Assembly: GCA_947653235.1 (NCBI GenBank)
Contig: CANTGH010000004.1
Coordinates: 2,453 to 66,452, forward strand
DNA: 64,000 bases
Direction: 5' to 3'
Origin: an uncultured Clostridium sp.
GTDB lineage: Bacteria > Bacillota > Clostridia > TANB77 > CAG-508
Numbering within the stretch: position 1 is the first letter of the stretch; every line of letters starts with the position of its first letter. The notes beneath the pieces are model-generated. The model did not search any database, was not told where the DNA came from, and was given only the letters and a program-made list of their open reading frames with translations. The position numbers and the translations under genes are program-made. Shown in pieces: positions 44,722 through 50,564 of this stretch.

Positions 44722-45853
44722 TTAATTCACAATTTCAAAATCCCATTCATCAAATGTCACATAATTTGCTTCTGGAATTAATCTATACTTTCCAGCTGGA
44801 AAAATATACTCCCCATACTTTATCGCATTATTTTGTTGTTGCAATGTATAATACACTTCATCATACTCTCCATTATTCTCCTTATAAAAAATAGCATTTT
44901 GTCCACTTTCTCCCTTATAATCGCTATAGCTATTGCTTGAAAATAAAATTTTTACATCTGCATATAAAGTAAAATCCAAATAATGCTCTAAACCTTCTGC
45001 CAATAAACAAGCTGAAAACGTTCCATACATAGTATAATCACCATCCATTAGATATTTACCATTTGCAAAAGTACCGCCAAGCCATCCCAGAATTTTGTTC
45101 ACCAACACAAACAGAACCTTCTGTTATTTGAATTACCTTTTCTTTCACTTCAACATTACAAATTGCTTTTATATTCTCCAATTCCTTAATTTCCGCTGTT
45201 ATTTGTGCACTTCCAGCTGCTTTTGCTGTTACCAATCCATTTTCATCTACACTTGCAATCTTAGGATTACTTGAATTCCACTCTACTTTATCATTTACAG
45301 GAACAATAGAAGAAACCGTTGGTACTAATTGATATGTCCTTGTACTTCTTTCAAATGTTGTCAATGTAATATTTTCTTTATCTAGACGAATTTCCATCTT
45401 ATCTGGTTCCTTTTTCACATAATGCTCCACTACTTTCGCTTGGGATTTTTCATTATTTATCTCAATTTTTATCTCATATTCATCTGTTGTACGAATTACT
45501 AAATTTGTACATTCTTCTGGATTTTCAACTCGATTTCCATTAGCATCTGTCATTAAAACATATTTTACCCATTGTTCGCTACCTACTTGACATTCTCTTT
45601 CTATCGCTTCTTTTATACTCTTTGCAAAAACTTCTATTTTTCCCTTTTCTACTCTATCGATTCTTTCTGCTGCTATTACCATTTCCAATTCTTCTCTTTG
45701 TTTCCCAAATTGATGCTTTATTGTTGCCGTTTCCGCTCTTGTCAAAATTCCATTTTCTCCTGCTATTAAATTTAAGCTAACCCCTGCTAAAATCAATAAC
45801 ACAATAATGGTAATCACCAGTGCAATTAATGTAATTCCCTTGTTCTTTTTCAT
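44722..45853 (-). CDS. Secreted pilin-like protein with a prepilin-type N-terminus and a Big_2 (Ig-like) domain, with an apparent frameshift at 45074-45076.
   Basis: N-terminus MKKNKGITLIALVITIIVLLILAGVSLNLIAGENGIL. The frame is restored by deleting the C of the in-frame CGG. Confidence 0.6.
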
Positions 45854-46015
45854 CTTTTGTGTTTCCTTTCCTCTTTTATAAATTTTAATAACAAATTTAT
45901 TATACCAAGTAATTCTCATTTTGACAACAATTTTCAAAAAATTGCCCTTAATTAAACACAAAAAAGCCCAAGGGCTGACAATTTCAGTCCTTTGAGCTTT
46001 TTATTTCATTTCCCT

Positions 46016-46690
46016 TTATCTTTCTTTTGCCAAAATCACCAATCGTGTATTAGGATCATGATCGGTACAAGTTGAAAGAGAGATTTCTCTTGCACCACCT
46101 GTATCCCTTACCATATAATCAGCATACGTGGTGTCGGCTTGAAATATATCATAAATTTCATAAGTAACTTTCGTGTTCGTCTGGTCTGTTATATCAATAA
46201 GGTCTCCTTTGGACAATTTTTTGTTATCTGAAAAAAACACACCTTTTCTTCTATAATTATGTCCCACAATCGTAATATTACCTGGCTGATTCAAAGGGCT
46301 TCTTTCTGGATACAAAATCGCAATCGAAGTTTCCAAGGATTTTTTCGTAACTTCTGATAAAATTGGATATTTGATACCTGTTTTTGGAATTTCAATTACG
46401 CCCATTACTTCATAGCCTTCCATATACGTTTTTTCTGGAGTCGTTTTGTCCGTTTCCAAGCTATTAATCTCATCCAAAGGGTTTTGCGCTGGGTCATTTT
46501 CCTTTTCTTTCCCTTCATCAAATTCCTTTCGAACTGAAAATTCATCTATCGCCTCTTGAGCCTTATTATTTTTAGCCTTCACTGCATACATATCATACAC
46601 AAAATAGCCTACAGTCCCCACAATTCCTATAATCACTATCACTAAAACAATGGTCAAAGCTTTACTATATTTACTATTAAACATCTTCAT
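46016..46690 (-). CDS. Sortase-family transpeptidase.
   Basis: N-terminal TM anchor. IVGHN His region. ISLSTC (TLxTC-type) catalytic Cys. Confidence 0.7.
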   Translation of the reverse strand: MKMFNSKYSKALTIVLVIVIIGIVGTVGYFVYDMYAVKAKNNKAQEAIDEFSVRKEFDEGKEKENDPAQNPLDEINSLETDKTTPEKTYMEGYEVMGVIEIPKTGIKYPILSEVTKKSLETSIAILYPERSPLNQPGNITIVGHNYRRKGVFFSDNKKLSKGDLIDITDQTNTKVTYEIYDIFQADTTYADYMVRDTGGAREISLSTCTDHDPNTRLVILAKER

Positions 46691-48530: not shown

Positions 48531-48722
48531 AACTTTTCTCCTCAAATTTTTTGTTTTGATTATATTATAAATTCGCTGAAATGACAAGATTTTTCGGAAA
48601 AATATTAAAAAATCATGTATTTCAACAAAAAAAAGACCGCGTTTAATAAAAGTCGGTCTTTTCTTTATTTTAACATATTTACATAATTTTGTCAAGTCTT
48701 TTTCGTTGCCTGAAATGCTTAT

Positions 48723-50564
48723 TTATTTTATTTTCATTTCGTAAAATTCACCTATCCCAGCACTACCATCTACATACTTAATTTCCAATTTCACAGCATC
48801 TTCTGGAAGCATTTTAGTGGTCTCTTGATTTCCCTCATTAGCCAAACTTAACCACTTAGTTTTATTCCCTTCTTTATCATAAACATAAAAGTCATATCTA
48901 CTCCAGTATCTAGCAATAAATTTAAGATATACTTCTTTTCCTTGAGCTTCTGGCTTTATATCAATATAATATATTGCCTCTAGCCTTGTATCTCCACTCT
49001 CACGATATGGCTGACATTGGAAAAATGTTGAAAGATTTCCATCATAGGCATTTTCTCCTAGAATATCTGGGAGATTATGAGTATAGGTTAATGTATCGGA
49101 TTCTCTTCCTTTGCTATTGATACTTTTGGCATAAACTGTTTCACCATAAGATAACTCAATTCCACCTTCTGGATAATCTCTCCAATTTACATTATCCATA
49201 CTATATAATTTTTTCACAGCAGATTCAAAATATTTAATTTGATATTTTTCATCATTATGAAGACCTTTATCATCTATATAAGGATATAAGCGTGTTTCAT
49301 CACCAATTGGTTTGGTATTTAAATTTATATTGTATACATAACATAAATCCGAATGTCCTTGTACTGTAGTAAATTTAAGCCATTTTGCATTTGCAGGAAT
49401 TTTTACTTGCAATACACCTTTCCCATGCATCGTATGCCAATAACCTCCTGCCCCTGTTATTCTTGTTGTTTTATCCTCTTGATAAAAATGGACATTTATG
49501 TGGTTGTAAGCAGGACAATATAATGTTATATTAACTGTATAGTCTTGTAAGTTATCTGCTAATTTCACATATTTATCTAAGGCTACTGCCCATGTTTCTA
49601 AATTTCCATCATAGGCTTCTTCCCCAATCGCATCTTGCACTGCACTTGCTTTTCGGATAGCTTGCGTTTTGACAAATGAAAATTTATTATCTACTATAGT
49701 TTTTGCTTTTATGGTTATTTCTTCCTCAATTTGTATTGGTCCTTCATATTTTTTCCAATTTTCTCCATTGTCCAAACTATAATAATTATTTGTATATTCA
49801 CCGAAATCAATTGCAATTTTACTGATATTTTTTTCAACTTCTTCCTTTTCTTTGGAAAGCATTGGATATTCTTTTATTTCAGAATCAATGATAATATCAT
49901 AATCCTCTATTTTTAAAGTATATTCAATACTTTCTTCTATCTCTTTTAGCTTAATATTAAAAATTCTTTCTTCGTTTTCGCCAATTTGATAATCATTGAT
50001 ATAAAATATTTTTTGATTTTCACTTTCTGCCTTCTTTTCTGTATTATCTGGTAATCGTATTTTTTCTATATTTTTATTTGATTCTATTTTCAAATTTACT
50101 GTGTATATTGTATTTTGTTTCGATACAATTTCATATTCTGCTTTAATATTAGCTCTTTTTACTCTATTCTCAATTAGTAAGTTCTTATTTATGGTATAAA
50201 TATACTCGTAGTCTTTTAATTTTATCTCTGCATATTCTATTTGATCTACTTCATTGTTTACAATTTCATCTGTTTGGTCATATAGTAGAATTGTTTCTAT
50301 TTCTTTATCGTCATAATAATATTCTTTCAAACCATATAATGTTGGTGTAAGTCCTTCCGATCTGGCATACATTTGATATTCCATTATTTTCATTTCTATG
50401 ATTTCTCTAGCTGTTGCTTCTTGATTTTTATTCACACTAGATGTTGCTCTACCTAAAATTCCGTTTTCACCTGCCACCAAATTTAAACTAACTCCAGCTA
50501 AAATGAGTAATACTATTATCGTTACAATAAGAGCAATAAGCGTAATACCTTTTTTCTTTTTCAT
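48723..50564 (-). CDS. Large secreted pilin-like protein (613 aa).
   Basis: N-terminal 37 aa (MKKKKGITLIALIVTIIVLLILAGVSLNLVAGENGIL) are near-identical to those of the 44722..45853 gene. Confidence 0.6.
   Translation of the reverse strand: MKKKKGITLIALIVTIIVLLILAGVSLNLVAGENGILGRATSSVNKNQEATAREIIEMKIMEYQMYARSEGLTPTLYGLKEYYYDDKEIETILLYDQTDEIVNNEVDQIEYAEIKLKDYEYIYTINKNLLIENRVKRANIKAEYEIVSKQNTIYTVNLKIESNKNIEKIRLPDNTEKKAESENQKIFYINDYQIGENEERIFNIKLKEIEESIEYTLKIEDYDIIIDSEIKEYPMLSKEKEEVEKNISKIAIDFGEYTNNYYSLDNGENWKKYEGPIQIEEEITIKAKTIVDNKFSFVKTQAIRKASAVQDAIGEEAYDGNLETWAVALDKYVKLADNLQDYTVNITLYCPAYNHINVHFYQEDKTTRITGAGGYWHTMHGKGVLQVKIPANAKWLKFTTVQGHSDLCYVYNINLNTKPIGDETRLYPYIDDKGLHNDEKYQIKYFESAVKKLYSMDNVNWRDYPEGGIELSYGETVYAKSINSKGRESDTLTYTHNLPDILGENAYDGNLSTFFQCQPYRESGDTRLEAIYYIDIKPEAQGKEVYLKFIARYWSRYDFYVYDKEGNKTKWLSLANEGNQETTKMLPEDAVKLEIKYVDGSAGIGEFYEMKIK

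Follow-up and report, generated by a model that had tools for sequence, protein, structure and literature searches.

Modular type IV pilins have been described in Streptococcus sanguinis, in which PilB carries a vWA module and PilC carries a lectin module (PMC8179133, PMC9934059). Almost every bacterial type IV filament system is considered to have a glutamate at mature position +5 (Glu5) and a prepilin peptidase with two aspartates (PMC10191384). Through Glu5 a salt bridge is made to the neighbouring N-terminus, and in known systems only tip caps are without this residue; the Glu5-less GspK of the type II secretion system, the PilK-type proteins of type IVa pili and PilA of S. sanguinis are compatible with a role as the first (capping) subunit (PMC10191384, PMC9934059). 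In the current analysis we have considered two genes in a stretch of 64,000 nucleotides from an uncultured Clostridium sp. (contig CANTGH010000004.1, positions 2,453 to 66,452 of the forward strand; referred to below as the window), whose products, p613 and p265, share an almost identical N-terminal leader. With a probability of roughly three in four, the N-terminus that they have in common represents the class III signal and the alpha1 helix of a type IV pilus (T4P) system of uncultured low-GC gut Clostridia, and the two window genes encode modular pilin-like proteins.

The open reading frames (ORFs) of p613 (positions 48723-50564) and p265 (45056-45853) are both encoded on the minus strand and begin with MKK(N/K)KGITLIAL(V/I)(I/V)TIIVLLILAGVSLNL(I/V)AGENGIL. 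Of the 37 residues of the two leaders 33 are identical, and the four substitutions that separate them are without exception conservative, in agreement with the near-identity over about 37 residues noticed in a preliminary description of this DNA. Comparison of the 37 codons reveals 15 identical codons, 18 synonymous changes and 4 conservative replacements, and the match between the leaders is therefore maintained by selection on the peptide rather than due to chance. Gene conversion or a recent duplication as the source of the leader identity is rejected on the number of synonymous differences. A six-frame motif scan located the leader only at the p613 and p265 sites; the further leader ORFs for which the preliminary description had proposed a search are hence absent from the window and numerous in related metagenome-assembled genomes (MAGs).

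The leader module of p613 (50454-50564, minus strand) is comprised of the prepeptide MKKKKG (50547-50564), the alpha1-N segment ITLIALIVTIIVLLILAGVSL and the hinge NLVAGENGIL, and that of p265 (45743-45853, minus strand) of MKKNKG followed by ITLIALVITIIVLLILAGVSLNLIAGENGIL. Prepilin cleavage is predicted from the sequence between G6 and I7, that is between codons 50547-50549 and 50544-50546 in p613 and between codons 45836-45838 and 45833-45835 in p265. The prepeptide MKK(N/K)KG of both proteins is basic and ends in glycine at -1, a position at which glycine or alanine is expected, and the hydrophobic stretch after the predicted cleavage site, ITLIAL(V/I)(I/V)TIIVLLILAGVSL, has the length of about 21 residues that characterises alpha1-N within the ~50-residue helix of a type IV pilin.

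In a search with p613 against sequences clustered at 90%, which was limited to 8,000 candidates, at least 3,732 proteins were significant, most of the matches being confined to the first ~60 residues. Scanning of a genome collection with the leader alignment matched at least 599 stretches and gave at least 420 confirmed copies; 80 loci (1.2 Mb), none of them from the species of the window, have been analysed, and these carry 107 leader ORFs after ORF calling and clustering. Among 125 homologues of the leader, the glycine at -1 is present in 120 and replaced by alanine in the other five, I1, T2, L3 and T9 are found in all 125, and G18 is found in 123. Position +5 is taken by alanine in p613 and p265 alike, in 123 of the 125 homologues and in 104 of the 107 locus ORFs, and the Glu5 of type IV pilins is missing from essentially the whole family. 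A G-x-N-G hinge is also seen at mature positions +26 to +29 (G26 and G29 in 123 of the homologues), where the helix predicted by AlphaFold2 breaks, and a glutamate is conserved at +48 (121 of the 125).

The relationship of the leader to type IV pilins has been identified by profile comparison. A profile of the leader (A1) compared with all PDB sequences has the type IV major pilins MshA (E-value 7e-4), geopilin (3.8e-3) and PilA as its best matches, and the alignment is in register, with G-1 placed on G-1, I1 on F1 and A5 on E5. N_methyl (PF07963) is the sole Pfam family that matches the N-termini of leader proteins, and it does so at an E-value of 1e-3 or better in only 28 of the 107 ORFs.

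The same leader is encoded within a conserved T4P operon of related organisms. It occurs in 13 of the 80 loci on one to five tandem pilins of 136-180 residues, in the form GITL(I/V)ALV(I/V)TI(I/V)VLLILAG, and one further copy is a fragment of 74 residues. The 5' part of the operon encodes a pilM-like protein of 540 residues, a pilO-like protein of 240 residues and a bitopic protein of 150 residues, followed by the tandem pilins. After the pilins come a PilD-like protein (PF06750, 103 bits) and two minor pilins with the N-termini G↓(F/I)TG(I/V)D and G↓ITL(I/T)S, and the 3' part consists of pilB (PF00437, 343 bits), pilT, pilC (PF00482) and, usually, a ROK kinase. The same operon is encountered again in loci L087-L092. 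One operon pilin of a relative attains 23.2 bits with N_methyl, above the threshold of 21.2, and an operon pilin of locus L024 shares a sequence identity of 38% with p265 over an alignment of 126 residues that covers 107 residues of p265 (BLASTP E-value 1e-20). Large leader proteins and the operon are found together in a common locus or MAG in L042, CALXZX01 (L041 and L065), CALXFF01 (L043 and L030) and CAMSQT01 (L014 and L045). No canonical GFTLxE pilin is encoded across the 1.2 Mb of loci, and an Asp5 is kept only in the minor pilin that begins with G↓(F/I)TG(I/V)D.

Since the leader heads both these operon pilins and thousands of proteins with fused domains, the two window genes are read as encoding modular pilin-like surface proteins. 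The preliminary description had recognised the layout of a prepilin or class III signal with alanine in place of glutamate at +5, and this is borne out by the in-register alignment and by the operon pilins. It had considered the leader not assignable to a described pathway, and this view is to be revised in favour of type IV pilus biogenesis, because the same leader heads small pilins in complete T4P operons of related MAGs. A system of T4P processed by PilD, which it had named as a possible refutation, does essentially account for the two genes; the system is nevertheless a non-standard one, in which Ala5 and Ile1 are combined with a PilD-like protein devoid of a detectable A24 domain, and is known from relatives.

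The PilD-like protein is encoded directly after the pilins (L024:12752-13561, L075:10504-11319 and L087:10001-10771), has the N-terminal domain PF06750 and has at least 1,856 homologues, which include P0129-P0248. A GxGD motif is not seen in this protein, and no protein with GxGD[VF]K is encoded in the 80 loci or in the window. Alignment of its C-terminal half to E. coli GspO with hhalign, a weak comparison with a single-sequence template, gave no match. Among 119 sequences the aspartate D126 of the motif GIDKE is invariant. The enzyme that cleaves the leader is uncertain, because no A24 domain can be detected in the PilD-like protein and its second aspartate is variable (see below); the likely enzyme is the PilD-like protein itself.

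The leader family is widespread in uncultured gut Clostridia. All of the 80 loci belong to MAGs of uncultured Clostridia or Clostridium, and those titles that name a source refer to the gut of animals or humans (rabbit, mouse, sheep, Hadza, Nepal). Single MAGs encode at least five leader genes. The C-terminal domains of leader proteins are mutually unrelated and include Flg_new, LRR_5, Big_2, Laminin_G_3, Glug and DUF285; enzymes such as alkaline phosphatase (Alk_phosphatase) and FGE-sulfatase-like domains are also found as cargo, as are dockerin and DUF4832/DUF4874. Many members have lectin, leucine-rich repeat (LRR) or Ig-like domains and can for this reason be regarded as candidate adhesins, in gut Clostridia that are both abundant and uncultured. 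No description of the leader family has been found in the searchable literature. The proteins are mostly unnamed, and censuses of modular pilins based on InterPro would likely miss them, as they fall below the N_methyl threshold and match no prepilin model of NCBIfam. A phage origin of the family is rejected, only eight weak loci having been detected in 2.9 million viral contigs.

Leader genes are often seen in tandem arrays of up to five (L009:7834-13341, L024:9998-12588, L017:8046-10702 and L067:92-4225). The arrays include, for example, three large genes placed consecutively and five near-identical small pilins that differ in their C-terminal halves, a pattern which suggests diversification of the surface-exposed parts.

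The product of the first window gene, p613 (48723-50564, minus strand), is intact with 613 residues. Its residues 1 to ~136 form the leader, the alpha1 helix and a small sheet, and are followed by beta-sandwich modules and by two lectin-like modules of discoidin or CBM32 type, in which the motif AYDGNL(E/S)T recurs at residues ~317 and ~506. The AlphaFold2 model (predicted local distance difference test score, pLDDT, 82.8) has helices at residues 4-31, 36-69 and 76-82, with a break after the first of them, and strands between residues 89 and 136. Its top PDB matches in Foldseek are the carbohydrate-binding modules of sialidases and fucosidases, Vip3 toxins and the discoidin-domain receptor DDR1. 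The preliminary description had regarded the fold of this protein as unknown; the model gives instead a split helix, a small sheet and beta-sandwich modules that match carbohydrate-binding and discoidin structures. Full-length homologues of p613 are 25-43% identical to it.

The second window gene had been described as a single protein spanning 44722-45853. This span of 1132 nucleotides contains two ORFs in different frames, namely the leader ORF, which ends at 45056, and an ORF of 128 residues (orf128) at 44722-45108 on the minus strand. The product of the leader ORF, p265 (45056-45853, minus strand; 265 residues from the ATG), has the leader and a pilin-like module (residues 1 to ~145) followed by a Big_2 Ig-like domain (173-236; 47.4 bits), which the preliminary description had named correctly, and its final ~26 residues are an out-of-frame tail. 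Residues 1-145 are modelled mostly at a pLDDT of 85-96, with helices at 5-31, 36-70 and 76-88 and four strands, and residues 240-265 at ~29. The models of both window proteins share, with high confidence, an N-terminal helix of ~65 residues split at GENG, a short helix and a four-stranded sheet, after which the cargo domains are placed.

A phmmer search of orf128 against 1.84 billion representatives gave 49 matches, in which the homology begins at about residue 17 (nucleotide ~45060), and no Pfam or NCBIfam match to orf128 was obtained. Residues 17-128 are 52-57% identical to the very C-terminal ends of proteins that bear the leader and are 348-617 residues long; orf128 is the displaced C-terminal domain of ~110 residues of the ancestral p265 gene and ends in FDEWDFEIVN. 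Three-frame translation places the frameshift at 45056-45108 (minus strand), where both frames of the ancestral gene of ~370 codons overlap around GAACAAAATTCTGGG. Intact orthologues of 348-378 residues exist, and P0370, P0371 and P0373 read across this zone. P0371, with 371 residues, has the same order as p265 and orf128 together: the leader is followed first by a pilin-like region, then by Big_2 and finally by a C-terminal domain that ends in EFDQWDFEIVN. The same split is called in both other assemblies that cover the gene (L001 and L002). The window copy of p265 is therefore a frameshifted gene, as the intact orthologues read through, and the low pLDDT of its last 26 residues agrees with this. 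As the other gene is broken in this way, p613 alone of the two is likely to be fully functional. Both genes have the organisation of modular pilins, in which a pilin module is joined to additional domains foreign to T4P: Big_2 and the domain of ~110 residues in p265 and P0371, and beta-sandwich and CBM- or discoidin-like modules in p613.

The following course of events is suggested for these proteins. A leader protein would enter the membrane through the hydrophobic alpha1-N, and the basic prepeptide MKKxKG would then be cut off after the invariant glycine (Gly6), probably by the PilD-like protein. The mature protein, beginning with ITLIAL, could be loaded by PilB and PilC, so as to become part of a pilus composed of the small pilins with the same helix or to be attached to it, or could be anchored at the surface by the helix. 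Either route would display the C-terminal cargo, that is the lectin-like modules of p613, or Big_2 and the domain of ~110 residues in the product of the p265 gene. Because the cargo of the family includes enzymes, the leader may serve as a general display handle, by analogy with the class III signals of archaeal binding proteins (PMC3047682).

Several observations weigh against the assignment of the two proteins to a pilus. The N_methyl scores of p265 (18.7 bits) and p613 (18.3 bits) lie below the gathering threshold of 21.2, and NCBIfam prepilin models such as TIGR02532 match neither of the window leaders. Glu5, which is considered key to the docking of pilins, is missing from the leader family. 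Foldseek comparison of the p265 model gave no pilin at a significant E-value, FimT being the best pilin at 0.95. In the PilD-like protein, Peptidase_A24 (PF01478) was not detected in five sequences scanned at E-values up to 10 or in the precomputed domains of the best 120 of at least 1,856 homologues, and the column of the second aspartate contains aspartate in 69, asparagine in 37 and arginine in 3 of the 119 sequences. Enzyme cargo such as alkaline phosphatase is no less compatible with anchoring at the surface than with a place in a pilus.

The genomic context of the window genes is to be counted on the same side. The window is a Firmicute chromosome segment with a low GC content (~32%) and nearly all genes on the minus strand. 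The search for the machinery covered the window, ±10 kb beyond each of its ends and in all 80 kb of contig NODE_67 (165 kb, ENA ERZ14425201), with which the window agrees wherever the two were compared, and revealed neither pilB, pilC and pilT nor a PilD-like gene. The candidates for PilD and PilB (P0194, P0225, P0233, P0307, P0279 and P0306) all derive from samples other than those holding this organism (ERZ14425201, ERZ14425211 and ERZ14425208; SRR15510213, SRR15510216 and SRR15510242; SRR22869818). Thus the prepilin peptidase for which the preliminary description had suggested a search is found, as the PilD-like protein, in related MAGs and not in the 80 kb around the window genes. A ROK kinase encoded in the window (42878-43780, minus strand) is 61% identical to that of locus L024 (L024:19011-19922; also L087:16148-17053). 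In the relatives this gene directly follows pilC, and in the window its place is after an ATP-grasp gene and the pilin-like gene with the frameshift. This arrangement hints at rearrangement or loss at the site, the operon being off its usual place and possibly lost. The absence of machinery in 80 kb, the broken ROK synteny and the frameshifts in p265 and in the adjacent histidine kinase together suggest that the pil operon of this organism may lie elsewhere in the genome or may have been lost.

The principal alternative to the modular pilin reading, which we consider unlikely, is a pilus-independent anchor or a relic. The leader would then, in this organism and perhaps in most large members of the family, be a handle of pilin origin for anchoring or export that displays surface cargo independently of a pilus, in the manner of those sugar-binding proteins of archaea that have class III signals, or else the machinery would have been lost and the genes would be decaying. 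Apart from the missing machinery, the altered surroundings of the ROK gene and the two frameshifted genes, this explanation would accommodate the absence of Glu5 throughout the family, the enzyme cargo (Alk_phosphatase, FGE-sulfatase, DUF4832/DUF4874) and the presence of five or more leader proteins in single MAGs, which exceeds the typical need of a tip complex. It does not explain why p613 is intact and its leader strongly purified relative to that of p265. Ongoing recognition by a peptidase of the prepilin type is implied by the basic prepeptide and its invariant Gly-1, and conservation that reaches ~60 residues, into alpha1-C with its near-invariant E48, would be superfluous for a mere anchor.

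The interpretation of the leader as an ordinary Sec (type I) signal peptide common to many secreted proteins, which the preliminary description had raised as a possible refutation, is highly improbable. A lysine-bearing n-region, a hydrophobic stretch and the many unrelated extracellular domains downstream are in keeping with such a signal. The hydrophobic regions of Sec signals are not conserved in sequence, and here at least 20 consecutive positions are near-invariant across 125 proteins of many species. Past the hydrophobic stretch there is no AxA-type site, as judged without a dedicated predictor, and the G-x-N-G hinge and an amphipathic helix are found instead. The leader is moreover carried by operon pilins encoded beside the PilD-like protein, pilB and pilC. 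Both this near-invariance and the register of the alignment with pilins lead us to reject the Sec signal.

Between the two leader genes, as the preliminary description had reported, lies a gene for a membrane-anchored sortase (46016-46690, minus strand; PF04203, 77.6 bits) with the motif LSTC. It resembles generic sortases of classes A, C and D, passes only the generic model TIGR01076, and fits no subclass model (55 bits for class C and 50 bits for class E, against cutoffs of 160). Sortases act on C-terminal signals. An LPXTG-type tail is present neither in the two window proteins, as had been noted correctly, nor in the other window ORFs or the 125 leader homologues, and no sortase homologue is encoded within 10 kb of the 107 leader genes in the 80 loci. 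A new sorting pathway in which this sortase would recognise the N-terminal module, for which its position between the leader genes and its lack of a subclass could be adduced, is hardly credible and is rejected because of this absence of co-location and of tails; within 10 kb of the leader genes of these loci, nothing is seen of the covariation of sortase and leader genes that had been suggested as a check.

The alanyl-tRNA synthetase (AlaRS) encoded at 46764-48530 (minus strand), which had been thought to be truncated, is the known short form of 595 residues (NF002436/PRK01584; 872.8 bits against a cutoff of 529). Its 588 residues are of full length, as residues 1-585 match positions 1-594 of the 595 of NF002436; this short form we take to lack the C-terminal C-Ala domain. 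An ORF of 643 residues that begins at an upstream TTG probably does not represent the real start. The sortase and the AlaRS are bystanders and lie outside the leader feature. The two-component system reported upstream of the leader genes is present, and its histidine kinase (50665-51968, minus strand) is frameshifted at about position 50700, after KTGGSGL, where the called frame ends in RTFYCYHDCRST and the other frame continues as GLSIATMIVEAHKGSIRAMPNEPKGSIFVVKFNR, each before a stop codon. The same call of 412 residues for this kinase is made in four independent assemblies.

Two other regions of the window have been observed in the course of the analysis. The region 11654-14518 on the minus strand encodes a signal peptidase I of the SipW or archaeal type (13276-13767), which scores 71.8 bits with TIGR02228 (cutoff 51.85) and is flanked by three small or medium-sized proteins anchored in the membrane by their N-termini, two of them with T(F/Y)AKY immediately after the hydrophobic stretch. 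By analogy with TasA and SipW, this region could be a second pair of a dedicated peptidase and its leader. An ORF of 1009 residues at 56421-59450 (minus strand) has no Pfam domain and is present in several assemblies.

Taken as a whole, the window genes encode pilin-type surface proteins, one of them broken, and the sortase and AlaRS genes are unrelated neighbours. A wider proposal, which we put forward tentatively and regard as less probable than the pilin-like nature of the two proteins, is that of a type IV filament system extending over the whole clade. All of its subunits would be Glu5-less (Ile1/Ala5), its PilD-like protein would have lost the canonical A24 signature, and the invariant helix of ~60 residues would serve as a handle by which each genome displays or exports adhesins, lectins and enzymes by the dozen. 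If true, the clade would represent a branch of the type IV filament superfamily with a mechanism of its own, with assembly independent of the salt bridge between Glu5 and the N-terminus and with display of proteins in a monoderm. A large natural family devoid of Glu5 and of the canonical two-Asp peptidase, with pil operons in relatives, offers a ready test of the need for Glu5.

Large families of paralogues with prepilin leaders are found in Planctomycetes and Verrucomicrobia, which also use a pilin-type signal as a handle for surface proteins and belong to different phyla. Archaeal class III signals generally lack Glu5. The leader family resembles the class III signals on the sugar-binding proteins of Sulfolobus, the 'bindosome' (PMC3047682), in that a pilin-type signal serves as a general handle for surface proteins with many paralogues per genome. 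The bindosome belongs to another domain of life, and the leader described here differs from its signals in being nearly invariant over ~60 residues.

As in PilB and PilC of S. sanguinis (PMC8179133, PMC9934059), bulky modules of adhesin or lectin type are joined to a short pilin module that starts with a class III signal. In common with the modular pilins, the leader family is widespread and architecturally diverse, and its genes often lie next to the pil operon or away from it. The signals of PilB and PilC are canonical, with Glu5, and are detected by IPR012902, whereas the leader family has Ile1 and Ala5 and no match among the NCBIfam prepilin models. It is further distinguished from them by being thousands strong, by including enzymes and by an incorporation into pili that is putative. 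In the systems with GspK, PilK or PilA a single minor subunit is Glu5-less and the major pilin has Glu5; here essentially the whole leader family is Glu5-less, including the tandem operon pilins that resemble a major subunit.

The PilD-like protein is similar to canonical PilD (A24_N_bact and Peptidase_A24) in its N-terminal domain with four cysteines (PF06750, ~100 bits) and in the aspartate of GIDKE, which occupies the expected first catalytic position. It differs from canonical PilD in having no detectable PF01478 domain or GxGD motif and in its variable second aspartate. The pathway itself, type IV pilus biogenesis, is known; what is new is a Glu5-less family of pilin leaders with Ile1, its atypical PilD-like partner and its thousands of mostly unnamed modular members.

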